Under the pieces are notes generated by a model, which searched no databases, was not told the DNA's origin, and saw only the letters and a program-made list of their open reading frames with translations. 64,000 nt of DNA from Klebsiella phage Magnus. Made by a program: the position numbers and the translations under genes. Below, in pieces: positions 3,595 to 49,021 of this stretch; position 1 is the first letter of the stretch; each line of letters opens with the position of its first letter. The DNA is taken from the sequence record NC_049462.1, one strand, 5' to 3'.

Positions 3595-5577
3595 ATGAAT
3601 CCGCAATTTAGTCAGGCCGGTGGTTCCGTCTCTAAAGACGTGAACAAACAATCTATCGCACGTGTATACGGCGTTAAAATGAGCGAAGTGGCTTATTTGA
3701 AAGCCGGATTAGTATTGAATGGTTATAAGGTGTTGTTTGATAAAACAACCCAAACTTGTTGGAAAAGTGGCAACGCTACAGGTACATCGATTTCCTGGCA
3801 AGTCTCTGGTAGCTCTCTGAACTTAGTAACTACTACTGGCTCGTATGTACTACCCCTTTTTGACATACTTGCAAACCTTGGTTCAGGCGAGGGACTTCTT
3901 CACATAGGAAGTGTAGCTACCATTGCTCAATTATCCACAGTCTCCCCCGTAACGGTAGGTCAGCGCATACAAGTTACCGAATATGCTTTAGGTTATGTAG
4001 TAGGTGGTGGTAACTTTATTGTACAAAAGTCATCTGATTATACGGTTGACGGTGGGAAGGTAGTGGCATCCGCAACGTCGGGGTTGGTCTTCGTACGTGA
4101 GGAATACTATGCGTCCCGCACTGTTAAGCCCGAATGGTACGGTTGTCGTGGTAAAGGCTCGGCCATACCCGACACAGTTCCGTTTAAAACGATGCTCGGT
4201 GCTCTTGTTAATGGCGACTACATCAGATTGATGGCCAATGCTGTTTATTACAATAGCTTTCCCAATAATTCGCAGGCAACAGATGGGTGGACAATAACCG
4301 CCGATAATATCACATTAGACGGTGTGGGCGGCGCCACCCTGTCCCGCGCAACACCTTCATCAGCAAGCTACTCTGGTTTTACCACGCTCAAGATTGCCGG
4401 CAGTAAAAACCCGAGACTGGTGGGGTCACTGCTCATCACCTCTGATGACCCCACCAACAGGCCTTTATACGCATACCAAAGTTTGACCAAAATCGACTCA
4501 AGGGAGATTTTCACATCTCCCTTGGCCAATACGCTAGGCCTGTGGGCGTCTGGCGTTGATGGCCTTTATATCGATAAATCGGTAATACTGGAAAGAGCTG
4601 TCTTCCCTTACTTCGCCAATAACGGCACAAAGAACAAAAAGGTGTTCTGCACTGCCAGAAAATCAGGTCAGATTTACCCGCAGCCGACGTCAGCAAGTTC
4701 AGATTTGGCACTCGGTAGTACCTTTAAGCTGGATGCGTGTTCCGACTTTATCATGGAGGTTGTTGCCAACGATTCGGCATATGCAGGCATTGAGTCTGAG
4801 AGTAACAACGTCAATGGCAGCATAACCCTAGTAACCAATAGGGCGTACCATGCCGGACTCCATTTATGGAACAGATGTAAGAACATTACTTACAAGGTCT
4901 CCGCGACGGATATCGTTGAGGGCGGTGGCGTTATTACAGGGTATGGTTGCGAGGCATGTAGCGGTGACGTTACAGCCTATAACGCACAATACGTCGCGGC
5001 ATTCATAGGAAATTCCGCAACAACCCCCGTTATAAGCTGTAACGTAAAAGGCTCTGGGTATGGCGTGACTGATGCTGTTGTATTCTATACAACAGCTGCG
5101 AATAATGCCTATATCCAGCACTGTAACGTGGATATTACTGCCGTGCACGCTGATGTATTCTCCATCGGCACTGGCCGACAATCAGCTATCAAGTTCAATG
5201 GTGGGCAGTACTGTGACATCAAAGTAAATGCCAAAGATTTTGACTACATATTTTCACTTGGCATGGGGGCAAATAACAAATTTAATGTTGCATATAATGC
5301 ATTCAATACAGCGTTCTCGTACTCAGATCAACGATCTTTTGACAATGAGTATAAATACACTGACCCTGCTGGCAGTGTGTACCATTTGCAGGCAAAGGGA
5401 AGTTCTTATGAGTACAGGTCAGATGCTGTCACTAACCCGGTTCTTGGGTATAAGGCACTGCTAAGAAAGCAGATAGTTACAGATGGGTTTGTTAATCCGA
5501 ACCTGCCACAAACAACTGCATCGGTGGGTGGTTTTTACTATGACCCAACCACGAAATATGTAAGGGTTAATCTGTAA
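3595..5577 (+). CDS. tailspike protein with conserved N-terminal anchor domain plus a beta-helix C-terminal region
   Basis: The N-terminal ~75 aa are paralogous to the 5885 ORF (MNPQFSQAGGSVSKDVNKQSIARVYGVK vs MKTQFNQSQGSTSRETNKEAIARIFGLK). The C-terminal part is Gly/Asn/Thr-rich. Confidence 0.6.
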   Translation: MNPQFSQAGGSVSKDVNKQSIARVYGVKMSEVAYLKAGLVLNGYKVLFDKTTQTCWKSGNATGTSISWQVSGSSLNLVTTTGSYVLPLFDILANLGSGEGLLHIGSVATIAQLSTVSPVTVGQRIQVTEYALGYVVGGGNFIVQKSSDYTVDGGKVVASATSGLVFVREEYYASRTVKPEWYGCRGKGSAIPDTVPFKTMLGALVNGDYIRLMANAVYYNSFPNNSQATDGWTITADNITLDGVGGATLSRATPSSASYSGFTTLKIAGSKNPRLVGSLLITSDDPTNRPLYAYQSLTKIDSREIFTSPLANTLGLWASGVDGLYIDKSVILERAVFPYFANNGTKNKKVFCTARKSGQIYPQPTSASSDLALGSTFKLDACSDFIMEVVANDSAYAGIESESNNVNGSITLVTNRAYHAGLHLWNRCKNITYKVSATDIVEGGGVITGYGCEACSGDVTAYNAQYVAAFIGNSATTPVISCNVKGSGYGVTDAVVFYTTAANNAYIQHCNVDITAVHADVFSIGTGRQSAIKFNGGQYCDIKVNAKDFDYIFSLGMGANNKFNVAYNAFNTAFSYSDQRSFDNEYKYTDPAGSVYHLQAKGSSYEYRSDAVTNPVLGYKALLRKQIVTDGFVNPNLPQTTASVGGFYYDPTTKYVRVNL

Positions 5578-5587
5578 AGGTGAAATT

Positions 5588-5737
5588 ATGGTTGAACTTG
5601 ATGAGATGTTTAGTAACCGTGCAGTGGTTGCACAGGCTCTTTCGGAGGCTCAGGAGATGGCCGTCCAGACTGATGATGGAAACGGGGGGGAACTTACCCT
5701 GGAAGACCAAATAGCATTTGCACAAGCTCAGGAGTAG
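5588..5737 (+). CDS. small ORF (49 aa, acidic)
   Basis: SD 'aaaggtga' then ATG. Not in the ORF track (under 60 aa). Followed by a terminator hairpin. Confidence 0.25.
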   Translation: MVELDEMFSNRAVVAQALSEAQEMAVQTDDGNGGELTLEDQIAFAQAQE

Positions 5738-5804
5738 GTATTCTGACAGCTTATAACTGGTGATGGTAATCCTGTTCTAAGGATATCACTGCAATGGTTT
5801 AAAC

Positions 5805-5830
5805 AAAGCCTCTTCGGGGGCTTTTCTTTT
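5805..5830 (+). terminator. rho-independent terminator (agcctc-ttcg-ggggct + T-run)
   Basis: GC stem-loop followed by 'tttcttttg'. Confidence 0.5.
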
Positions 5831-5837
5831 GAACAAA

Positions 5838-5844
5838 CTAAATA
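5838..5844 (+). promoter_or_regulatory. T4-type late promoter core (CTAAATA) upstream of the tailspike gene at 5885
   Basis: 'aaCTAAATAcaagga' lies about 40 nt before the ATG. The same core recurs before other virion genes. Confidence 0.45.
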
Positions 5845-5884
5845 CAAGGAGACATTGTTAGAAAAACAACATGAGGAACCACCC

Positions 5885-8077
5885 ATGAAAACGCAGTTTA
5901 ACCAATCCCAAGGCTCGACTTCACGCGAGACGAACAAAGAAGCGATTGCTCGTATCTTCGGTTTGAAGAAGTCTCAAGTCGGCTATTTGTCGACATCCAC
6001 CCCAATTGACTCATATGTCATATTGTTTGACAAAGAAACTCAGACTTGTTGGTATCGTGGTACGGCAACAGGAACACCAACATCATGGTTAGTTACAGGA
6101 AATACTTGTGTTTTGAATACCAACGCGGGGGTATTCAATTTAAACATAGCTAATTCTGGGGATATTTTAAAATCTAATTTGTCTTCTGCTATAGGTTCCT
6201 CAATGATAGGGTCTGAATGGGGAGGAACAATAAAAGATGCGATGGTATTTGTTTCTCCATCAAATTATGGCGGTGTTGCTAATGACCCTAGTTTTGACAA
6301 TTCTTCGGTCATTACGCTGGCAGCCACAAATTCAAAATTCGTAGATCTTAAAGGGTTGACTTGGTATATATCAAGCCCTATATATGTCCCCTCCGGTTGT
6401 ATAATACAAAATGGGAAAATTGTTTCTACAGCAGTAAAAGATGGCCCGTTTATGACAGGAAGTATATTTGCTCCAGGTAATTATCATCCGGTTTATGTAG
6501 ATAATATAGCCAAATCCACCGTAGGGACTTCTATCAATAGTAGTATCGTGACAGTAGATCCGACTGAATTTTCTATAGGCGAATTAGTACGCATATCTTC
6601 AACTAACGGTATCACTAACGGGTCAAATGGGTTCATACCAAAATATATGCAATTAGCCAAAATCATTGGTAAAACAAATTCTACCATTATATTGGATTCC
6701 CCTATTGAATCTAGTGATAATATGGTGTTACACAAAGCTAATAACACCTCTGTGAACGGTCGGTTTGACAAACCTCTTTTCGTTTGTGAAAACTCAATCA
6801 TACGTAATATAGAGATTGATACATGGGATTATTGGACGGCAGATTCTGCCACCTACAATGTGTTATTTGAGAATATAAAAGGCAAAGCAAAATCCGTAGT
6901 ATATGGAAATACATTTTGTAGGACAACTTTCAAGAATATTAATATTGCTTTCAGAAATAAAGCTTGTGAATTGGCGTTTGGTACGCATAACACATTACTA
7001 GAAGATATAGAATTTATTTCTAATGAAAGTGATTTTGTTATGGGTCCGGCAGAAGCGCCGACATACCTCGGCATTAGTCTTGCAGAATCAGGGCGTCATT
7101 GTACATTAGAGCGTTGGAAATTGCTTTTGGGTTCTAACGCAACTCCTCCAACAGTCTTCCGTATTTCTAGCCATTCTGATGTTATAGTCAGGAACGGTGA
7201 AATACGGATTGTTAGTAATACTAACAACGTGATGTCTGTAGAACATTATGGTGGCGAACGGTGTTCATGTGAAAACATATTATTGGAAAATATTTCTATA
7301 AATATTTCGGGTTCAGCTACAGTAGTGATGGACGTTTATAAATCCGCGGACGACTCGGTTATCAATAATGTTGAGTTTAAAAATATCTCATATTCAGGGG
7401 TTTCTCCTTCTGTTTCTCTGATCAGACAAAGGGGGACAGTGAACAATCCAGTAACTGGTATTAGAGGTTCAATAAAAACTAAAGTCACAGGAGCATTCAA
7501 CGTATCCAATGCTTCCGAATATGATTTTAAACTGTATGGACCTTTTACTTTGTCTAGCGCGATAGCGTTAGACGCATATGGGAAAATACAGTTAATAAAT
7601 TCATCCAGGACTGGATTGAAATCTCAAAATTACACGACCAGCACGATTACTCAAATAACCAGCACAGATCCTGCCAATAAGGTTTGGGGATTCAATTATC
7701 CAGCAGGTTCACTGAGGTCTTCAGATGAAATATCATTGTTTATATCAGGAAGTTATGGACAACTGAACGGGACTAAAAACATATCAGTTGGCGTCGTTGG
7801 GTCATCTGGGGAAGTGTTGACTACATTGAGCGCATTGGCTACAGAAGAAGGATTTGCCACATTTGATTTGAGATTGCGGGTGGTTTCTGATGTATATGTG
7901 CTTTTAAGTGGTTATATGATAAAGGGGAACGTTATCACTCCGGTGAGATCGTTAGTTCCTGTTAATTCATTAGCAACGAATGCTTTGGTCATGAACATAT
8001 ATGCTTGGAAGCAGAATTTAGCTGATGGGTTGGCTATCCAGAAATTAACCGCTAAGTTGGTTGATGTCACAGGTTGA
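5885..8077 (+). CDS. tailspike protein with conserved N-terminal anchor domain (paralog of the 3595 gene) plus a different beta-helix C-terminus
   Basis: ORF track 5855..8077. The internal Met 'MKTQFNQ' at 5885 aligns with the start of the 3595 gene. Beta-helix-like repeats follow. Confidence 0.6.
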   Translation: MKTQFNQSQGSTSRETNKEAIARIFGLKKSQVGYLSTSTPIDSYVILFDKETQTCWYRGTATGTPTSWLVTGNTCVLNTNAGVFNLNIANSGDILKSNLSSAIGSSMIGSEWGGTIKDAMVFVSPSNYGGVANDPSFDNSSVITLAATNSKFVDLKGLTWYISSPIYVPSGCIIQNGKIVSTAVKDGPFMTGSIFAPGNYHPVYVDNIAKSTVGTSINSSIVTVDPTEFSIGELVRISSTNGITNGSNGFIPKYMQLAKIIGKTNSTIILDSPIESSDNMVLHKANNTSVNGRFDKPLFVCENSIIRNIEIDTWDYWTADSATYNVLFENIKGKAKSVVYGNTFCRTTFKNINIAFRNKACELAFGTHNTLLEDIEFISNESDFVMGPAEAPTYLGISLAESGRHCTLERWKLLLGSNATPPTVFRISSHSDVIVRNGEIRIVSNTNNVMSVEHYGGERCSCENILLENISINISGSATVVMDVYKSADDSVINNVEFKNISYSGVSPSVSLIRQRGTVNNPVTGIRGSIKTKVTGAFNVSNASEYDFKLYGPFTLSSAIALDAYGKIQLINSSRTGLKSQNYTTSTITQITSTDPANKVWGFNYPAGSLRSSDEISLFISGSYGQLNGTKNISVGVVGSSGEVLTTLSALATEEGFATFDLRLRVVSDVYVLLSGYMIKGNVITPVRSLVPVNSLATNALVMNIYAWKQNLADGLAIQKLTAKLVDVTG

Positions 8078-26135: not shown

Positions 26136-26229
26136 ATTTTGCAGCCACAGCCCTCTATAAAAGGGGGCTTGATTTTGAACGACTAAGTAATTTCAACTTA
26201 ACTGAATATCAATGTAAGGAATGAGCATC

Positions 26230-27552
26230 ATGGCTAAGAAACTTGTTACTGAACAAATGCGCGAAACGTGGCTGCCGGTTCTGAATGAAGAATCCAAATC
26301 TATTCAGCCGCTGTCTGCCGAAAACGTCGCGGTTCGCCTGCTGCAGAACCAGGCCGAATGGAACGCCAAAAACCTGGGCGAATCCGAAGCGCCGGGTTCT
26401 CTGAACACCACTGTCGGTAAATGGCAACCGGTTCTGATCGATATGGCAAAACGTCTGGCGCCGATCAACATCGCGATGGACTTCTTCGGCGTTCAGCCGC
26501 TGTCTGGTCCGGACGGTCAGATCTTCGCACTGCGTGCTCGCCAGGGCGTTGCTGACGGTTCTAATACCCAGCAGTCCCGTAAAGAACTGTTCATGCAGGA
26601 AGCCGATTCCGGTTATTCTGGTGACGGTACTGTACAGGCTGGTGACCCGTCTGGCTTCACCCAGGCTGAGATCGAAGGTTCCGGCGCTGGCACCACCACC
26701 ATCGGTAAAGGTATGCCGTCGACCGACGCTGAACTGCTGGGCTCTCCGTCCAATCCGTGGGCGCGTGTTGGTATCACCGTTCAAAAAGCGACCGTTACTG
26801 CGAAATCTCGCGGCCTGTACGCTGATTACAGCCACGAACTGCGCCAGGACATGATGGCGATCCACGGCGAAGACGTGGACAACATTCTGTCCGACGTGAT
26901 GGTAACTGAAATTCAGGCGGAAATGAACCGCGAATTCATCCGCACCATGAACTTCAGCGCAGTACGTTTCAAAAAATTCGGCACCAACGGTATCGTAGAC
27001 ATCGCTCAGGATATCTCCGGTCGTTGGGCGCTGGAAAAATGGAAATTCCTGACCTTCATCCTGGAAGTTGAAGCGAACGGTATCGGCGTTGACACCCGTC
27101 GTGGTAAAGGCAACCGTGTCCTGTGTTCCCCGAACGTAGCATCCGCGCTGGCAATGTCCGGCATGCTGGATTACGCTCCGGTTCTGCAGGAAAACACCAA
27201 GCTGGCGGTTGACCCGACTGGTCAGACCTTTGCGGGCGTTCTGTCCAACGGTATGCGCGTCTATATCGACCCGTATGCAGTAGCAGAATATATCACCCTG
27301 GCGTACAAAGGCGCAACTGCGCTGGATGCTGGTATCTTCTTCGCACCTTACGTGCCGCTGGAAATGTACCGCACCCAGGGTGAAAGCACCTTCGCACCGC
27401 GTATGGCGTTCAAAACCCGTTACGGCATCTGCGCGAACCCGTTCGTACAGATCCCGGCTACCCAAGACCCGCAGGTATACGTTACCTCCGACGGCATCGC
27501 CCAGGACAGTAACCCGTACTTCCGTAAAGGTCTCATCAAATCTCTGTTCTAA
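26230..27552 (+). CDS. 23: major capsid protein gp23
   Basis: 'FFGVQPLSGPDGQIFALRA' vs T4 gp23 'FDICGVQPMNSPTGQVFALRA'. 'DAGIFFAPYVPL' vs 'DAGIYYAPYVAL'. 'MAFKTRYGICANPF' vs 'MGFKTRYGIGINPF'. SD 'aagga' lies 9 nt before ATG 26230. Confidence 0.9.
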   Translation: MAKKLVTEQMRETWLPVLNEESKSIQPLSAENVAVRLLQNQAEWNAKNLGESEAPGSLNTTVGKWQPVLIDMAKRLAPINIAMDFFGVQPLSGPDGQIFALRARQGVADGSNTQQSRKELFMQEADSGYSGDGTVQAGDPSGFTQAEIEGSGAGTTTIGKGMPSTDAELLGSPSNPWARVGITVQKATVTAKSRGLYADYSHELRQDMMAIHGEDVDNILSDVMVTEIQAEMNREFIRTMNFSAVRFKKFGTNGIVDIAQDISGRWALEKWKFLTFILEVEANGIGVDTRRGKGNRVLCSPNVASALAMSGMLDYAPVLQENTKLAVDPTGQTFAGVLSNGMRVYIDPYAVAEYITLAYKGATALDAGIFFAPYVPLEMYRTQGESTFAPRMAFKTRYGICANPFVQIPATQDPQVYVTSDGIAQDSNPYFRKGLIKSLF

Positions 27553-27573: not shown

Positions 27574-27601
27574 AACCCCGCCATGTGCGGGGTTTTTATT
27601 T
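27574..27601 (+). terminator. strong rho-independent terminator (aaaccccgcc-atg-tgcggggttt + ttattt)
   Basis: Perfect GC stem plus U-run after gp23. Confidence 0.7.
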
Positions 27602-38158: not shown

Positions 38159-38192
38159 TCTTCAATATCTATCTGTTGCTTTAATATCGTTG

Positions 38193-41062: not shown

Positions 41063-41084
41063 GTCATTCCACGTTTCAATATAC

Positions 41085-41115
41085 AACAGAGGCTATAATG
41101 GCCTCTGTTTTCGTA
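41085..41115 (+). terminator. terminator aacagaggc-tataatg-gcctctgtt + ttcgtattc
   Basis: Perfect 9-bp stem plus U-rich tail. Confidence 0.6.
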
Positions 41116-42700: not shown

Positions 42701-44731
42701 ATGTCAGATTTTAAACCCTTCGCAGTTGCTGTAAAGAATCAAATCACCGCGATGTCCAGCAATGGCCTGTACATGACTTCGGTTGACAAAGACGCCCTGT
42801 GGGATCTGTATCTGTCGTCTTTCCCGGAAGGCACCAACAACATCTACCGTGAGCGCACCGAGCACGATTGCACCTGCTGCAAGCAATTCATCCGTAATAT
42901 CGGCGGCGTCGTATCGATTGACGCTGATCTGAACCTGGTCACTGTGTGGGACAGTGTTAATCTGGGCAACGAATATGACGTGGTGGCAGCGGCGCTGGCC
43001 AAGTATGTCAAGCAGCACAATATCGTGGGCGTATACTTCAACGATTCGTCTAAAGTCGGCGTTGAAAGCAACCATGAAATGGGTGAAAACGGTAAAGTCC
43101 GCACCTACAACCATTTCCACGCAACGCTGGAAGGCAAATTTGTTCTCCGCGCCGATACTATCGCATCCAGAAAAGGTGAAATCTGGCAGTCGATTGAAGT
43201 CTTTGAGCGCGGGTTGCGTGAACTGACTCTGGAATCGGCTGAGATCGTACTGGAACTCATCGACCAGAACTCCCTGTATCGTGGCGAAGAGCATCGTGCT
43301 GCTATCCAGAGCTTTATCCAAAGCAAAAATGAATACGCACAAATTCCGTCGACTCTGAAACAACTCTGGGCTTGGCGTACTGGCTGGATGTCGAATAACC
43401 ATAAGCCGTTCGGCATCCGAAATAACGTCATCGGCACGTTATTAATCGATCTGTCTGGTGGCGTGGATCTGGAAAAGGCGGTTAAGTCATTTGAAACCAA
43501 AGTGGCACCGACCAACTACCGCCGCCCGACTGCTCTGGTGACTAAGGGTATGATCGAGCAAGCGCAGAAAAAAGTTGCTGAACTCGGCCTGACCGACTCG
43601 CTCGGACGCCGCTTTGCCACCTACGACGACCTGACCATCAACAACGTTCTGTTCGCTGATTTGGCTGCGCAGAAGGCGATGGATCCGTTTGCCCAGCTGG
43701 CTCAGGAAGTGAAAGTGTCGGAGAAATCCCTGGGTAAAATCGAAGAGATCAGTGCCGACGACTTTGTCAAAAACGTACTGCCGAAGGCGCATTCTATGGA
43801 AGTCCTCTTTGAGGGTTCCCATACTGGTAATCTGATGTCGTTGGTGGCACCGCAAACTGCAGGCGCACCTGGCCTCTTCAAATGGAATAACAACTTCTCC
43901 TGGTCATATAATGGTGAAGTTGCCGATTCCATCAAAGAGCGCGTGAAGGCCGCTGGCGGTAATGTGGATTCGTTCCTGCGTGTGTCTCTGGCCTGGTTCA
44001 ACAACGATGACCTGGACCTGCACATGTATACACCGCAGCGTGAACATATCTACTTCCACACTCGCGAATCCCGTTCTACGGGCGCCAAGCTGGACGTTGA
44101 TATGAACGGCATGGATGGTATCAACGCAGAACGCAAGCCCGTTGAGAACATCTTCTTCAGCGATGAAAGCAAGCTGAAAGACGGTGTGTATCAGTTCGTG
44201 GTGGACAATTATAACCAACGTGAAACTATCGACACCGGGTTTATCATCGAAGTCGAATACAAAGGTGATCTGAAGCGCTATTCCTGCGAAAAAGGTCTGA
44301 AGCAGAAACAGCAGTTCGCGGTAGTTGAACTTCATGTCAAAAATGGCAAAGTCGTTGACGTTCAGACTCCACTGACGCCGACTGCTGGCGTTGAGACTGA
44401 AGTATGGGGCATCCGTACACAGAACTTCCAGAAAGTGCAGCTGGTTCTGAACTCACCGAACCATTGGGATGGTGAACAGACAGGCAACCGCCACTTGTTC
44501 TTTATCCTGGAAGGCTGTGTGAACCCGGTCGGAACCCGCGGATTCTACAACGAATATCTGAAGCCGGAACTGGCACCGCATGGTAAGGTTTTTGAAATGC
44601 TTGGCGCTAAAATGAAAACAGCACCAAGTGATAACCAACTGAGCGGCCTGGGCTTCTCTTCCACTCAGCGCAACCATGTTCTGGTGAAGGTAAGTGGCTC
44701 GTTCAACCGTGTAGTCAAAGTCGTCTTTTAA
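42701..44731 (+). CDS. large conserved hypothetical protein (676 aa)
   Basis: Long ORF preceded by the leader box 'TGAAACAGGAAGACTATA'. No recognisable catalytic motif. Confidence 0.55.
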   Translation: MSDFKPFAVAVKNQITAMSSNGLYMTSVDKDALWDLYLSSFPEGTNNIYRERTEHDCTCCKQFIRNIGGVVSIDADLNLVTVWDSVNLGNEYDVVAAALAKYVKQHNIVGVYFNDSSKVGVESNHEMGENGKVRTYNHFHATLEGKFVLRADTIASRKGEIWQSIEVFERGLRELTLESAEIVLELIDQNSLYRGEEHRAAIQSFIQSKNEYAQIPSTLKQLWAWRTGWMSNNHKPFGIRNNVIGTLLIDLSGGVDLEKAVKSFETKVAPTNYRRPTALVTKGMIEQAQKKVAELGLTDSLGRRFATYDDLTINNVLFADLAAQKAMDPFAQLAQEVKVSEKSLGKIEEISADDFVKNVLPKAHSMEVLFEGSHTGNLMSLVAPQTAGAPGLFKWNNNFSWSYNGEVADSIKERVKAAGGNVDSFLRVSLAWFNNDDLDLHMYTPQREHIYFHTRESRSTGAKLDVDMNGMDGINAERKPVENIFFSDESKLKDGVYQFVVDNYNQRETIDTGFIIEVEYKGDLKRYSCEKGLKQKQQFAVVELHVKNGKVVDVQTPLTPTAGVETEVWGIRTQNFQKVQLVLNSPNHWDGEQTGNRHLFFILEGCVNPVGTRGFYNEYLKPELAPHGKVFEMLGAKMKTAPSDNQLSGLGFSSTQRNHVLVKVSGSFNRVVKVVF

Positions 44732-44766
44732 GTTAAAATACAACCGAATTCATAGAGGATACAAAA

Positions 44767-45138
44767 ATGTTTGATAAAGCAACCCGTCTGAAACTGCGTT
44801 TCAACTCCAACAAAGGCATGCTGTCCGTTGAGCAGGTGTGGGATCTGAGCCTGACTGCTCTGAACGAAATGGCGAAAGGTCTGAACCGCGAACTGAAAGC
44901 TGCTGCGGTTGACGATGAAGATTTCATCGGTAACAATACCGCTGTTGATTCTCAGCTGCAACTGCGCTTTGACATCGTCAAAAGCATCATCAGCACCAAG
45001 CTGAAAGAGCGCGACGACACCCTGTCCGCTGCAGAAAAACGTGAGCACAACCAGGCCATCCTGGAACTCATCAAGAAGAAACAGCAGGAAGAGCTGGCGG
45101 GCAAATCTGTTGAAGAACTGCAAGCCCTGCTGAAATAA
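44767..45138 (+). CDS. hypothetical helical protein (123 aa); its 3' end is the upstream copy of the 27-bp direct repeat
   Basis: ORF. The C-terminal 'SVEELQALLK' is encoded by the repeat. Confidence 0.5.
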   Translation: MFDKATRLKLRFNSNKGMLSVEQVWDLSLTALNEMAKGLNRELKAAAVDDEDFIGNNTAVDSQLQLRFDIVKSIISTKLKERDDTLSAAEKREHNQAILELIKKKQQEELAGKSVEELQALLK

Positions 45139-45161
45139 ATCCGTCAACTCCGGTATTAACA

Positions 45162-45186
45162 ACCCCGCCCTGTGCGGGGTTTCAAT
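45162..45186 (+). terminator. terminator aaccccgcc-ctg-tgcggggtt + tcaatttg (upstream copy of the duplicated terminator)
   Basis: GC stem plus T-rich tail. Near-identical to the terminators at 47789 and 27574. Confidence 0.6.
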
Positions 45187-45236
45187 TTGTGTATCGCAGT
45201 ATAATACATATGTAAACTAAACTATGGGGCTACGTT

Positions 45237-46091
45237 ATGTTTCGTTTGAGATTGAACGACCAAGATGTGTTCTACAAACACTTCACCTTTCCGGGCGGTG
45301 AGGAACATATCAAGATTCAAAAGGCGGGTATCCCTGTTGGTAAAATCCAGACAGTGGTAATTGACGCCCACATTAAATCGTCAGCAGACTTCATTGAGCT
45401 GGCACTGTTGGTGAATGCCGTGCGCGGCCTGGGTAATGTCGACCGACTGACAACATTTCATGCTTATATCCCTTATTTTCCATATGCCCGTCAGGATCGT
45501 CATTGCGACTTTGGTGAACCTCTTTCGGTGAAGTGGGCAGCAGAGTTCATCAATAGTATGAACTTTGACCGTGTGGCTATCAAAGACCCTCACAGCCATG
45601 TTGTGTCTTCTTTGATCAACAACGTCCATGTTGTCCCGCAAGATTACATTGCTCGCCAGTACCTGGGATGGTTCATCCGTGGAAACAACGCTGTGTTAGT
45701 AGCCCCTGACGGTGGCGCGGCGAAGAAGACTGAAACCCTCAGCCTATCGCTGGATGGCGTTCCTGTTGTCTACGGACATAAGAACCGCGACACCAAGACA
45801 GGCGAGATCATTGGGGTGAGTATTACAAACCCTGAACTGATCAAAGACCGCTATCTGGTTGTGGTAGATGATATCTGTGACGGCGGGCGAACGTTTGTTG
45901 AGCTGGGCAAAGAGCTTCAGAAGCACGAGCCTAAGCACATGACCCTCTTCGTTACCCACGGCATTTTCAGCAAAGGCCTCTCTGTGTTCGACGGGATCTA
46001 CGATGCTGTGTATGCCGACACTGTCTGGTGGGAGAACATCACTGCCGACGGTCTTCCATTCAAAACTGAAAATACAGGACGTGTAAAATGA
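45237..46091 (+). CDS. ribose-phosphate pyrophosphokinase (Prs) family protein; candidate ADP-ribose pyrophosphokinase (Adps) of the NARP1 NAD+ reconstitution pathway
   Basis: 'IPYFPYARQDRH' vs E. coli Prs 'IPYFGYARQDRR'. 'VVVDDICDGGRT' vs 'VLVDDMIDTGGT'. 'VTHGIFSKG' vs 'ATHPIFSGN'. Confidence 0.65.
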   Translation: MFRLRLNDQDVFYKHFTFPGGEEHIKIQKAGIPVGKIQTVVIDAHIKSSADFIELALLVNAVRGLGNVDRLTTFHAYIPYFPYARQDRHCDFGEPLSVKWAAEFINSMNFDRVAIKDPHSHVVSSLINNVHVVPQDYIARQYLGWFIRGNNAVLVAPDGGAAKKTETLSLSLDGVPVVYGHKNRDTKTGEIIGVSITNPELIKDRYLVVVDDICDGGRTFVELGKELQKHEPKHMTLFVTHGIFSKGLSVFDGIYDAVYADTVWWENITADGLPFKTENTGRVK

Positions 46092-47740
46092 GCATGCGCC
46101 ACTTAGATCCAATCCATGCAATCGACTTCTACAAATCAGGGCACATCTATCAATTTCCTGAAGGTAGCGAGCTGGTGTTCTCCAACGGAACTCCACGCTC
46201 CAACAAACTGTTCAACTCCCACCTGCCGAAGAACGGCGTGGTGGTCTGGGGTATCCAGGGCTTCATGACCTGGTTCCACGAACTGTTTGATGAAGCGTTC
46301 TTCCAGCGCCCAAAGGCCAAGGTGCTGAAGAAGTATGCCCGTCGAATGAACAAAGTTCTCGGACCAGGCCGCGTTGGGACAGAGCATATCGAAGCCCTGC
46401 ACGACCTCGGCTACCTGCCTATCGAAGTCCGCGCTCTACCCGAAGGCACCATGTGCCCGTATGGTGTTCCAGTATATGTGATGTTCAACACCTTGCCGGA
46501 GTTCTACTGGCTGACCAACTATCTGGAGACGGTGTTCAGCTCTGAGATCTGGAAGCCGATGACGAACGCAACCATTGCCCTGCATTACAAGGCGCTGATG
46601 GTGAAAGCCGCTATCGCTACAGGCGTGTCGCCGGACCATTGGTTCATCGACTACCAAGGCCACGACTTCTCCTTCCGTGGTATGAGCGGGTGGCATGACG
46701 CGGCGTCTTCCGGTTCTGGCCATCTGGTGTTCTTCAAAGGCACCGACACCAACCCTGCCCTGGACTTCGTTGAAGAGTATTATGGCGCGGATATCGATGA
46801 AGACTATGTCGTTGCTGGCTCTGTTGCAGCCACCGAACACGCCGTGATGTGCATGGGCACGAAAGATGGCGAATTCGAAACCTTCCGCCGCCTGGTACAG
46901 GACGTGTATCCTGATGGCATCGTCAGTATCGTTTCTGATGCATGGGATTACTGGCAGGTCATCGACGACTATCTGCCGCGCCTCAAAGATATCATCATGG
47001 CGCGTAATGGCAAAGTTGTGATCCGCCCCGACTCTGGTGACCCAGTGCATATCGTCGGTGGTTATCGCGTCGAAGAATTTTGCAATGAGCAGGATTTTTA
47101 CGATAACGACCCACGTGAAGAAACTGAAGTTATCTATCTCAAAGAAGAAAACAGATACCATATTCTGGAACAATATCAGTTTAATCAGATCGGGGAAGAG
47201 ATTTCTCGTTCAGAAGCGGTCGGTTCTATCCAGCGCCTATGGGAGATCTTTGGCGGAACCCAGACCGAAACGGGCCACTTCCTGTTGGATGAGCATATCG
47301 GCCTGATCTACGGTGATTCCATTACCCTGAGCCGTGAAGATCAGATCTTTGCTCGTCTGGCTGAACGTAATTTCGCTTCCATCAACGTAGTGTTCGGTAT
47401 CGGTTCCTATACTTACCAGATGAACACCCGTGATAGTACCGGGACGGCGGTGAAAGCAACGGCTGGGAAGGTCAACGGTGAATTCCGTGAGATTTTCAAA
47501 GAACCGAAGACTGACAAAGGTGGTACGAAGAAATCTGCGCGTGGTTTCCTTAAAGTCATTAAAGACTCTCAGGGTAAACTAGTGTTGGTTGACGGTATCA
47601 CCTTTGATCAGGTGCAAGACGCCGACAACCAGCACCAGCTGGTGTATCGTGATGGCAAGTTCTTCAACACCCAAACTCTGGAAGAAGCGCGTTTTCGTGC
47701 CGCTCCTCTGGTGGAAGAATTGGCATCACAAATATGTTGA
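46088..47740 (+). CDS. nicotinamide phosphoribosyltransferase (NAMPT/NadV) family protein; candidate Namat of NARP1
   Basis: 'DFYKSGHIYQFP' is the DSYK-type N-terminal motif. 'RPDSGDP', 'IYGDSI', 'FGIGSYT' and 'KKSARG' match NAMPT 'RPDSGNP', 'IQGDGV', 'FGSGGGL' and 'KKGR'. ATGA overlap with the Prs-like gene. Confidence 0.75.
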   Translation: MSMRHLDPIHAIDFYKSGHIYQFPEGSELVFSNGTPRSNKLFNSHLPKNGVVVWGIQGFMTWFHELFDEAFFQRPKAKVLKKYARRMNKVLGPGRVGTEHIEALHDLGYLPIEVRALPEGTMCPYGVPVYVMFNTLPEFYWLTNYLETVFSSEIWKPMTNATIALHYKALMVKAAIATGVSPDHWFIDYQGHDFSFRGMSGWHDAASSGSGHLVFFKGTDTNPALDFVEEYYGADIDEDYVVAGSVAATEHAVMCMGTKDGEFETFRRLVQDVYPDGIVSIVSDAWDYWQVIDDYLPRLKDIIMARNGKVVIRPDSGDPVHIVGGYRVEEFCNEQDFYDNDPREETEVIYLKEENRYHILEQYQFNQIGEEISRSEAVGSIQRLWEIFGGTQTETGHFLLDEHIGLIYGDSITLSREDQIFARLAERNFASINVVFGIGSYTYQMNTRDSTGTAVKATAGKVNGEFREIFKEPKTDKGGTKKSARGFLKVIKDSQGKLVLVDGITFDQVQDADNQHQLVYRDGKFFNTQTLEEARFRAAPLVEELASQIC

Positions 47741-47788
47741 AGAACTGCAAGCCCTGCTGAATAGCCAGCTGCCTTCGGCGCGATAATG

Positions 47789-47812
47789 AACCCCGCCATG
47801 TGCGGGGTTTAT
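47789..47812 (+). terminator. terminator aaccccgcc-atg-tgcggggtt + tattttagg (downstream copy)
   Basis: GC stem plus U-run. Confidence 0.65.
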
Positions 47813-47826
47813 TTTAGGTGAAGAAT

Positions 47827-48204
47827 ATGAAACCAGTTATTTGTGATTATTGTGGGAAGGCAGCGATACTCGTTAGTGGCGACGCAATATACCCCCACCG
47901 CCCGGATCTTAACCACCTTCAATTCTGGGCTTGTGAGCCTTGCGATGCAAGAGTCGGTTGCCATCCTAACACAGGGGGCATTCCCCTCGGGAGCCTGGCT
48001 AATGCCGAATTGCGCAAAGCGAGAAACAAGGCGCATAACTGTTTTGATCCTCTTTGGAGAGAAGGTGGTATGAGCCGTGGACAGGCATACCAATGGCTGT
48101 CTGAACAACTCGGTCTACCGAAGTCCAAATGTCATATAGGACAATTCGATATCCACACGTGCACAAAAGTCGTTGGCTTGTGCAGCCTTTATTGGAGTAT
48201 GTAA
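47827..48204 (+). CDS. zinc-finger-containing protein (CxxC...CxxC; DUF3268-like)
   Basis: 'CDYCGK...CEPCDARVGCH'. SD 'aggtga'. Confidence 0.45.
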   Translation: MKPVICDYCGKAAILVSGDAIYPHRPDLNHLQFWACEPCDARVGCHPNTGGIPLGSLANAELRKARNKAHNCFDPLWREGGMSRGQAYQWLSEQLGLPKSKCHIGQFDIHTCTKVVGLCSLYWSM

Positions 48205-48957
48205 ATGTCTAACAGAACTGGTATTAAACTCAATCCAGAAATCCTTAAATCCCATATCGCGGAAGTTATCTATGAAGACCGCGAAGTGGGAGGGCATCGT
48301 GTTATCACTTGCCATTTGAAAATGGATAACGGATTTGTCGTTTGGGGAAAGGATAGCTCAACATCTATTGACCCCAAAAATTTCGATGAAGAATTGGGCA
48401 AGAAATTGGCATACGATAAGACTTTCTCTCAATTGTGGGAACTGGAAGCATATCGGGCTATGGTTGTCCAAGATTTCATTGGTAAGACAACTGAAGAACC
48501 GTTTATAAAACTTGAAGATTATATTGAAGAAAGTAAGACAATGCAAGTATCCGGTTGGGACTATCGGAATGGTGTAGCCACCGCATATTCTATTAGATCA
48601 ATTAAAAGAAGTAAATTTGGATTGTTGGATTACATCAGCATTTGTCTTTACAAAACTGATAATAAAAAACATGATGATATCAATAATTCGAAAGAAATAC
48701 AGAAAGCAAAGGATTTCATCAGATCTTATATGAATCACACTGAAATTAATAGCCAGTTTGTAATTCATATCGCAAAACTTTGTTGGGCTGCTCGGTCAGC
48801 GGTTGTGGACACTACACCTTCTTGGGAAGATTCTAAAGAAACAGATCGCCAAGATATGTGCGAAACGGTTAAAAAATTACTGTTATCCCCCAGCGATTAT
48901 CAACCAAAAGATAATTTGTTGAAATTGTTTTGGGCGATTGTGTCCCAATTCCGATAA
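48205..48957 (+). CDS. hypothetical protein (250 aa), AT-rich
   Basis: ORF abutting the upstream stop codon. Confidence 0.5.
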   Translation: MSNRTGIKLNPEILKSHIAEVIYEDREVGGHRVITCHLKMDNGFVVWGKDSSTSIDPKNFDEELGKKLAYDKTFSQLWELEAYRAMVVQDFIGKTTEEPFIKLEDYIEESKTMQVSGWDYRNGVATAYSIRSIKRSKFGLLDYISICLYKTDNKKHDDINNSKEIQKAKDFIRSYMNHTEINSQFVIHIAKLCWAARSAVVDTTPSWEDSKETDRQDMCETVKKLLLSPSDYQPKDNLLKLFWAIVSQFR

Positions 48958-49021
48958 CAAAACCGGGTTCAATATACGTTCGGGCATATAATATCCTAGT
49001 GTTAAACAGTGGAGAAGATTT

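Follow-up and report, generated by a model that had tools for sequence, protein, structure and literature searches.

Duplicated gene end and terminator around a two-gene Prs/NAMPT cassette in Klebsiella phage Magnus: a probable scar of horizontal insertion

Klebsiella phage Magnus (sequence record NC_049462.1) was analysed over a stretch of 64,000 nucleotides, referred to here as the window, in which a Prs-like gene and a NAMPT-like gene form a two-gene module bracketed by a short direct repeat. The phage is a Taipeivirus (Ackermannviridae) and is approximately 95-96% identical to phages 0507-KN2-1, Madison, P01 and Menlow. The repeat can be regarded with good confidence as the scar of a horizontally mobile two-gene cassette for reconstituting nicotinamide adenine dinucleotide (NAD+), placed in one Taipeivirus lineage directly 3' of the terminator of the conserved gene upstream (gene A). 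The cassette, comprising its own promoter and the Prs-like and NAMPT-like genes, would have entered from another phage during mixed infection, with both junctions formed by microhomology-mediated illegitimate recombination or by template switching in recombination-dependent replication. A switch back about 75 bp upstream of the point of departure would have duplicated the gene A tail, the spacer behind it and the terminator. Later on, crossovers with cassette-free relatives would have used the 27-33-bp repeat and a 22-bp hairpin as short stretches of homology, carrying a 2,627-bp unit from one genetic background to another and probably also deleting it.

The 27-bp perfect direct repeat TGTTGAAGAACTGCAAGCCCTGCTGAA is present at 45108-45134 and 47735-47761, bracketing the module as a first-pass annotation of the sequence had reported, and the upstream copy does encode the terminal ...VEELQALLK of gene A (44767-45138). 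The downstream copy had been placed at the stop codon of the NAMPT-like gene; it starts three nucleotides earlier (TGT TGA, stop at 47738-47740). With one mismatch the repeat reaches 33 bp (45102-45134 against 47729-47761). No further copy of the 27-mer was found in the window with up to three mismatches allowed, and 100 dinucleotide-preserving shuffles gave no match. Each copy is followed by the 22-bp hairpin AACCCCGCC(C/A)TGTGCGGGGTTT (45161-45182 and 47789-47810), in which a single loop base differs; the near-identical terminator described earlier is indeed present twice, with the upstream one beginning at 45161 instead of 45162. By folding, AACCCCGCCnTGTGCGGGGTTT gives a stable stem-loop in both copies, with a GC-rich stem of 8-12 bp and then a U-tract, and the annotations of Madison, Marshall and KWBSE43-6 place a terminator there as well. 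The copies of repeat and of hairpin lie 2,627-2,628 bp apart with the Prs-like/NAMPT-like operon between them, and neither duplication is expected by chance. No alignment could be made between the two spacers (26-27 nucleotides) that separate repeat from hairpin.

The hairpin recurs elsewhere in the window. A third copy (AACCCCGCCATGTGCGGGGTTT, 27574-27595), identical to the downstream one, lies directly 3' of an open reading frame (ORF) for a 443-residue major-capsid-like protein (26221-27552), so the hairpin alone is a recurrent terminator serving at least two unrelated genes. The 27-mer, with two copies in 64 kb against three of the hairpin, is by contrast specific to the cassette locus. 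Consensus scans for sigma-70 promoters and terminators returned counts near shuffle expectation; the terminator scan caught the upstream hairpin only, as a weak stem of five pairs, and the promoter scan called no sigma-70 promoter after the upstream copy. A promoter-like motif, TTCAAT-N13-TATAAT, does follow the upstream copy and that copy only, as the downstream copy runs straight into the ribosome-binding site of a zinc-finger gene (ZnF). On the plus strand the motif lies upstream of genes at 41075-41099, 45181-45205 and 48968-48992, and with one mismatch at 38161-38185, giving four copies (three perfect, one with a single mismatch) where 0.6 are expected. Its TTCAAT box sits near -30, not at the canonical -35, and may mark a phage-specific, perhaps middle-type, promoter class of Ackermannviridae.

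Gene order in related phages indicates which of the two copies is the older. In May (Taipeivirus) and SKML-39 (a Salmonella phage, Agtrevirus) the order is A-ZnF-G-Prs-NAMPT, G being the gene after ZnF, and in the window, Madison and 0507-KN2-1 it is A-Prs-NAMPT-ZnF-G. The single-copy A/ZnF junction of May and SKML-39, running from the gene A end through spacer, hairpin and ribosome-binding site to the ZnF start, aligns base for base with window 47735-47830, and the same single-copy junction is found in Marshall, Dickeya phage phiDP23.1, HMGUkp5 and others. Since the downstream copy is collinear with this junction, it represents the ancestral A/ZnF junction. The ZnF gene has kept its upstream context, including a relic of gene A that is now non-coding and whose stop region is degraded in the window (AAATAAATCCG to AATAGCCAG), and the downstream hairpin is now the sole terminator 3' of the NAD operon. 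In other genera the cassette, where present, occupies a site some 1.2 kb farther along, between gene G and its downstream neighbour. A foreign acquisition peculiar to this phage was considered and ruled out, the cassette being widespread in Ackermannviridae at that other site.

Relatives that lack the cassette were expected, if the repeats mark an insertion, to have one repeat copy joining gene A to the zinc-finger gene. This is what HMGUkp5 has: its order is A-ZnF-G and its single junction reads ...CTGCTGAAATAAATCCGCTGCCTTCGGCGCGATAATGAA[hairpin]TTTATTTTAGGTGAAGAATATG... In T765 (A-G), cp18, Bestiario, cp19 and others the single copy joins gene A to gene G, and in eleven Klebsiella Taipeivirus genomes besides HMGUkp5 gene A is contiguous with G at 95.8-100% identity. 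Marshall (Kuttervirus), with the order A-ZnF-G, a gene for 58 residues and a vWA-like gene, has no cassette either, and the cassette is also missing from Serratia phage phiMAM1 and from the Taipeiviruses KpS110, IME250 and KWBSE43-6. In the last of these, a phage of E. coli, the site is empty and the gene after G, together with its promoter, directly follows the gene A terminator (5900-6000). Empty-site relatives are single-copy and carriers are two-copy, which supports the earlier reading of the repeats as the footprint of an inserted cassette.

The cassette ends can be located by comparison with carriers in other genera. The native NAMPT end, ...ELASQI and stop (CAAAT(C/T)TGATAA), is found in May, SKML-39, P46FS4, maane and decayed Dickeya copies, and in those phages the native terminator AAGGGGAGGAGACTCCCC(T)GTTTT follows the native stop. 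In the window lineage the gene ends ...CAAATATG/TTGAAGAACTG... (a slash marks the junction) and is joined to the gene A tail GGCAAATCTGTTGAAG within the octamer CAAATCTG; the fusion gained one Cys codon, lost the native terminator and uses that of gene A. At the other end, similarity to all other-genus carriers starts at window 45176, inside GGGGTTT/CAATTTGTG...TATAAT, and in those carriers the promoter-bearing sequence follows the T-tract of the gene G terminator (..GGGCGTTT/CAATTTGTG). Both cassette junctions are thus microhomologies, and at the left one the promoter end of the cassette abuts a terminator T-tract whether the neighbour is gene A or gene G. All seven fusion-bearing carriers that were read (the window, Madison, Menlow, FKP10, K5lambda5, 0507-KN2-1 and MDA2066) share one and the same NAMPT/gene A fusion, down to a synonymous ATC-to-ATA change, so the fusion arose once. 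Because the native cassette end is kept in four genera and the fused end is derived, its origin was an insertion-type event. Import of the upstream spacer from the donor's G-Prs intergenic region was considered on the basis of a weak similarity (TCAACTCC against TCAAACTCC of SKML-39) and set aside, as the beta spacer of cp19 is an allele of the gene A terminator region and the spacer at that place differs in every lineage. No transposase, integrase, homing endonuclease or other supported ORF was found in the 2.6-kb unit, which holds two metabolic genes only; with no mobile-element enzyme, a duplication of about 75 bp and microhomology junctions, it does not qualify as a transposon, a homing element or an integrase-borne element.

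The history of the cassette differs from that of the genome around it. Between the window and SKML-39 the Prs-like and NAMPT-like proteins are 96.8% and 92.5% identical (about 87-89% in nucleotides) and flanking proteins 51-74%; between the window and May, the values are 92.6% and 90.9% (about 83-84% in nucleotides) and 84-94%. Codon identity at conserved residues displays the same reversal, with the window cassette nearer to SKML-39 than to May, and across genera cassette proteins are 92-97% identical where flanking proteins are 50-75% identical. A cassette that is less similar to the copy in the closer relative, May, has a history of its own and points to horizontal movement. Homologues of gene A are present in 419 phage records, 245 of them at 60% identity or more, and NAMPT at 80% or more in 85 records. 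At the site described here the cassette is found in about 22 records, and the site is empty in at least 12 Taipeivirus genomes of 95-100% identity; roughly two-thirds of the sampled close relatives have it and one-third do not. All 29 Klebsiella records that match the sequence upstream of Prs can be accounted for by 28 cassette carriers and cp19, which implies that, within the sensitivity of blastn, none of the remaining empty-site genomes has Prs at another place. Scans of IMG/VR returned six loci for the Prs-like protein and five for gene A, mostly from the same isolates. In Agtrevirus, NAMPT/RPPK genes are variable and present in 8 of 14 genomes (PMC10791037; review PMC11721090).

Remnants of the cassette were also observed. 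In Dickeya phage phiDP23.1 (6433-7716) the Prs-like gene is lost, the last 110 or so NAMPT codons are left and annotated as NadV/NAMPT, and ZnF and G are truncated; a metagenomic contig (3501-3779) and phage RPN242 retain a Prs fragment and a short NAMPT fragment. The remnants in Limestonevirus, the contig and RPN242 represent loss by erosion, not clean excision.

Spacer alleles between the gene A end and its hairpin point to exchange at the repeats after insertion. The upstream spacer is of the beta type (ATCCGTCAACTCCGGT...) in seven of the eight carriers read directly, the exception being TASP117, and among the matches listed it is matched through at 96-99% in all 16 cassette-bearing records. 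Downstream of the cassette, an alpha-prime spacer and then ZnF are found in the window, Madison and 0507-KN2-1, and a gamma spacer leading directly to G in Menlow, FKP10, K5lambda5 and MDA2066. Empty sites carry alpha in T765, phi1_146041, KZag1, PWKp5, phi1_175010, HMGUkp5 and KWBSE43-6, gamma in Bestiario and cp18, and beta in cp19. Each downstream spacer type matches an empty-site allele that co-circulates with it (HMGUkp5 for one, Bestiario and cp18 for the other), FKP10 and cp18/Bestiario are essentially one repeat period apart, and copy number, two against one, tracks presence and absence of the cassette exactly. Neither NAMPT nor the Prs promoter has a homologous counterpart in empty-site genomes, so a change in a single spacer needs a crossover inside the 27-33-bp repeat or the hairpin. 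On these comparisons the repeats appear to have been used in recombination at least two to three times.

Two genomes deserve separate description. In cp19 a beta spacer and beta hairpin, behind a gene A haplotype equal to that of Madison at 60 of 60 variable sites, lead straight into G, and its match to the Prs-upstream query covers the 44-nucleotide spacer and hairpin only; it is the best candidate for an excision product. TASP117 (4503-7200) has the order A, terminator, Prs, NAMPT, native terminator and next gene, with neither ZnF nor G. Its cassette lies behind an alpha spacer, and its NAMPT gene is chimeric, with the native end, a 5' third 97% window-like and the rest at 85%, making it an apparent recombinant between the two cassette positions. 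As a separate observation, the gene for 676 residues upstream of gene A and gene A itself (42701-45138) are 96-98% identical in protein to Serratia phage IME250, compared with about 85% and 96% to Madison/Menlow, and from the Prs-like gene onward the window is 94-100% Madison-like. Since the variable sites in gene A switch pattern near its 3' end, the window phage is itself a recombinant with the breakpoint inside gene A. The features of the locus are summarized in Table 1.

Table 1. Features of the cassette locus in the window (a slash in a sequence marks a junction).
Feature	Coordinates	Strand	Remarks
Gene A, conserved 123-residue phage protein	44767..45138	+	ORF; last 9 codons are the upstream repeat copy
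Upstream repeat copy	45102..45134	+	coding (..KSVEELQALLK); perfect over 27 bp, starting at 45108
Upstream spacer, beta allele ATCCGTCAACTCCGGTATTAAC	45139..45160	+	not alignable with downstream spacer
Upstream terminator hairpin AACCCCGCCCTGTGCGGGGTTT	45161..45182	+	terminator of gene A
Left junction J1, GGGGTTT/CAATTTG	45176..45183	+	start of similarity to other-genus carriers; GTTT microhomology
Cassette promoter-like motif TTCAAT-N13-TATAAT	45181..45205	+	kept upstream of Prs in all cassette-bearing phages
Prs-like gene, PRPP-synthetase family; plausibly NARP1 Adps	45237..46091	+	Pfam PF13793 and PF00156; PDB ribose-phosphate pyrophosphokinases
NAMPT-like gene; plausibly NARP1 Namat	46088..47740	+	Pfam PF04095 (NAPRTase/NAMPT family); PDB NAMPT matches
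Right junction J2 CAAATATG	47729..47736	+	donor NAMPT end CAAATCTGATAA; gene A tail GGCAAATCTGTTGAAG; shared octamer CAAATCTG
Downstream repeat copy	47735..47761	+	relic of the gene A 3' end, non-coding and in a different frame from NAMPT
Downstream spacer, alpha-prime allele	47762..47788	+	from CTGCC onward, the single-copy spacer of HMGUkp5 and T765
Downstream hairpin	47789..47810	+	original gene A terminator, still joined to zinc-finger gene
Zinc-finger gene (ZnF, DUF3268)	47827..48204	+	Pfam; directly 3' of gene A in May, SKML-39, Marshall, HMGUkp5
Gene G, N4 gp49 / Sf6 gp66 family	48205..48957	+	Pfam; in other genera the cassette is just downstream

Several observations weigh against insertion followed by exchange at the repeats. 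A simple duplication predicts identical spacers and the two spacers are unalignable, so later allele replacement, or two different parental genomes, must be invoked. Because the hairpin recurs elsewhere, a common type of terminator, and not duplication, could account for some of the likeness between the two hairpins. A donor cassette closer than about 89% nucleotide identity was not found. For the loop-out of the cassette suggested earlier, the evidence is allele shuffling and cp19 as one candidate product; the exact product expected if a window-type genome recombined between its 27-mers, with gene A ending ..ALLNSQLPSAR and stop, was absent from the phage collection when searched with a synthetic junction query (best full-length match HMGUkp5, 96.3%), and an exact-pattern search of metagenome contigs gave no match. 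The record of TASP117 is partial, with gene A and the upstream gene for 676 residues fragmented. Any one empty site may be either a pre-insertion or a post-excision state, and the empty-site genomes may all be pre-insertion states; none of the alpha empty sites carries the degraded stop region AATAGCCAG, so they are not recent products of the window type.

On a more static account, a single old insertion left an inert scar, the empty sites are ancestral, the repeats never mediated excision or transfer, and the alleles were distributed by recombination in long flanks. In favour of this, the alpha and gamma empty-site alleles are widespread, gamma resembles the allele of May and could be ancestral, the stop region of the relic is decayed in window-type genomes, and the phage collection and metagenome contigs yielded no exact window-type excision product. 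Crossovers in long flanks alone, however, cannot produce swaps confined to the downstream spacer (alpha-prime against gamma) or to the upstream one (beta against alpha, TASP117), and cp19 pairs the cassette-linked beta spacer and hairpin and a Madison-identical gene A haplotype with an empty site. An inert scar is therefore a minority possibility, though one to be taken seriously. Far harder to maintain is the idea that the repeats belong to a genome-wide, terminator-family regulatory motif and surround the cassette by coincidence. The third hairpin 3' of the major-capsid-like gene (27574-27595) is in its favour, but the 27-mer occurs at the two cassette boundaries only, even at three mismatches, which effectively refutes the idea for the 27-mer; the first-pass annotation had itself named such a widespread motif as the finding that would overturn its proposal, and the hairpin alone recurs. 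The whole downstream segment, coding relic of gene A included, is moreover collinear with the single-copy junction of relatives, and two copies or one correspond exactly to presence or absence of the cassette. Coincidence is barely credible on this evidence.

Horizontal acquisition could be dispensed with if an ancestor ordered A-ZnF-G-Prs-NAMPT, as in May, had its blocks interchanged within the genome, for example by a tandem duplication via CAAATCTG and two deletions, with the cassette-free genomes arising by later deletion. May is of the same genus and has the alternative order, its A/ZnF junction equals the downstream copy of the window, one unequal crossover between the NAMPT end and the gene A end would give the observed fusion, and the divergence of the cassette from that of May (83-84% in nucleotides) falls within the range of some flanking genes (80-85%). 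Against this, the window cassette is 87-90% identical in nucleotides to those of Agtrevirus/Kuttervirus and 83-84% to that of May, whereas the flanks run the opposite way (55-77% and 80-92%). In the window lineage the junction from G to the next gene is clean and promoter-bearing, like that of cassette-free phiMAM1, with no trace of the native cassette terminator, and interchange needs three events, not two. Pure block interchange was downgraded on the cassette-free relatives and on the incongruent divergence of cassette and flanks, and is considered unlikely. Insertion from another phage, with later exchange at the repeats, is the preferred explanation.

A further step would be to regard the whole unit of 2,627 bp, from spacer and terminator through the promoter and both genes to the gene A tail, as a self-targeting portable module. 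Carrying the conserved 3' end of a core gene together with its terminator, such a module could loop out as a circle and, through homologous recombination at gene A, enter the genome of any Ackermannviridae phage in the same cell. This is a tentative proposal and on balance a doubtful one. If true, an anti-defence pathway would spread without a dedicated recombinase, and transfer by mini-circles of the kind described below for T4-type phages would be extended to another family of phages and to a cargo whose adaptive value is known.

The cargo resembles a characterized anti-defence system. A two-gene phage operon annotated as Prs and Nampt was shown experimentally to be NARP1 (Adps and Namat), which uses ADP-ribose and nicotinamide to make NAD+ anew and defeats the defences DSR, SIR2-HerA and type I Thoeris (bioRxiv 10.1101/2024.02.11.579819). 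The same architecture is present here: the start of the NAMPT-like gene overlaps the stop of the Prs-like gene, and the last codon (Cys) and stop of the NAMPT-like gene come from the gene A tail. PDB matches of the Prs-like protein are to cellular phosphoribosyl pyrophosphate (PRPP) synthetases only (E = 1e-17). From operon architecture and domains, assignment to NARP1, with the Prs-like protein as Adps and not a true PRPP synthetase, is plausible. The cassette is likely to pay off through resistance to NAD+-depleting bacterial defences, which would explain its patchy distribution.

The neighbouring genes vary as well. No Pfam family matched gene A. ZnF is present or absent independently of the NAD cassette (both in the window, cassette only in Menlow, ZnF only in HMGUkp5, neither in T765), and the boundary of its presence or absence is again the T-tract of the gene A terminator. 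KWBSE43-6 lacks the whole ZnF-G-(cassette) stretch, so the interval from gene A to the vWA-like gene is a small hyperplastic region. Homologues of gene G are labelled "anti-CRISPR protein" in several recent records, apparently by an automated pipeline.

Operons for NAD+ reconstitution are attracting interest at present as counter-defences of phages, and members of Taipeivirus are employed against drug-resistant Klebsiella. The locus presents, at base-pair resolution, the gain, relocation and probable loss of such an operon among near-identical therapeutic-candidate phages. A polymerase chain reaction across gene A and ZnF/G would provide simple phage typing and a means of watching for loss during production, and the locus is a natural system for measuring recombination at homologies of 22-33 bp.

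The closest known parallel is the shuffling of promoter-early stem-loop (PeSL) elements in T4-type phages, where terminator/promoter cassettes flank accessory genes and excised mini-circles have been detected (Arbiol et al. 2010, PMC2839356; Comeau et al. 2014, PMC4122927). In both cases a non-essential module with its own promoter lies in a plastic region between short regulatory repeats with a terminator stem-loop beside a promoter, closely related phages either have the module or lack it with exact boundaries, the empty site has a single, sometimes chimeric, repeat, and the proposed mechanism is reversible excision and insertion via the repeats. The differences are considerable. T4-type phages have a genome-wide family of about 50 cassettes with sigma-70-type promoter and stem-loop, whereas the repeat here does not appear to belong to such a family, measures about 75 bp (coding 3' end, spacer and terminator) and would have been made by the insertion itself. 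The promoter-like motif follows the upstream copy only and is not a canonical -35/-10 pair, and the Ackermannviridae case is known from sequence comparison where mini-circles have been seen in T4-type phages.

Morons, following the concept of Hendrix and Hatfull, are accessory transcription units with their own promoter and terminator in lambdoid and other tailed phages. The cassette is similar in being an accessory unit between genes that are adjacent in relatives and in its likely benefit in particular hosts; classical morons, however, belong to temperate phages and are expressed from the prophage, whereas here the phage is virulent and the unit has lost its own terminator and borrowed the duplicated one. 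With NARP1 operons the cassette shares a Prs-family gene directly upstream of a Nampt-family gene, patchy occurrence among related phages and a proposed anti-defence role. What the papers on NARP1 and Agtrevirus cover is gene content and biochemistry; they do not describe how the junctions are built, a second site of insertion or the flanking duplication. Deletions and duplications in the rII region of phage T4 end in short direct repeats. Junctions with 4-8 bp of microhomology, direct repeats of tens of base pairs as substrates for deletion and recombination-dependent replication are features in common, with the difference that here foreign DNA was imported and not only resident DNA rearranged. 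As terminator/promoter-repeat shuffling and microhomology junctions are established for T4-like phages, the locus brings no new principle; what it offers is a clear instance, from a new phage family, of genome plasticity of a known kind.

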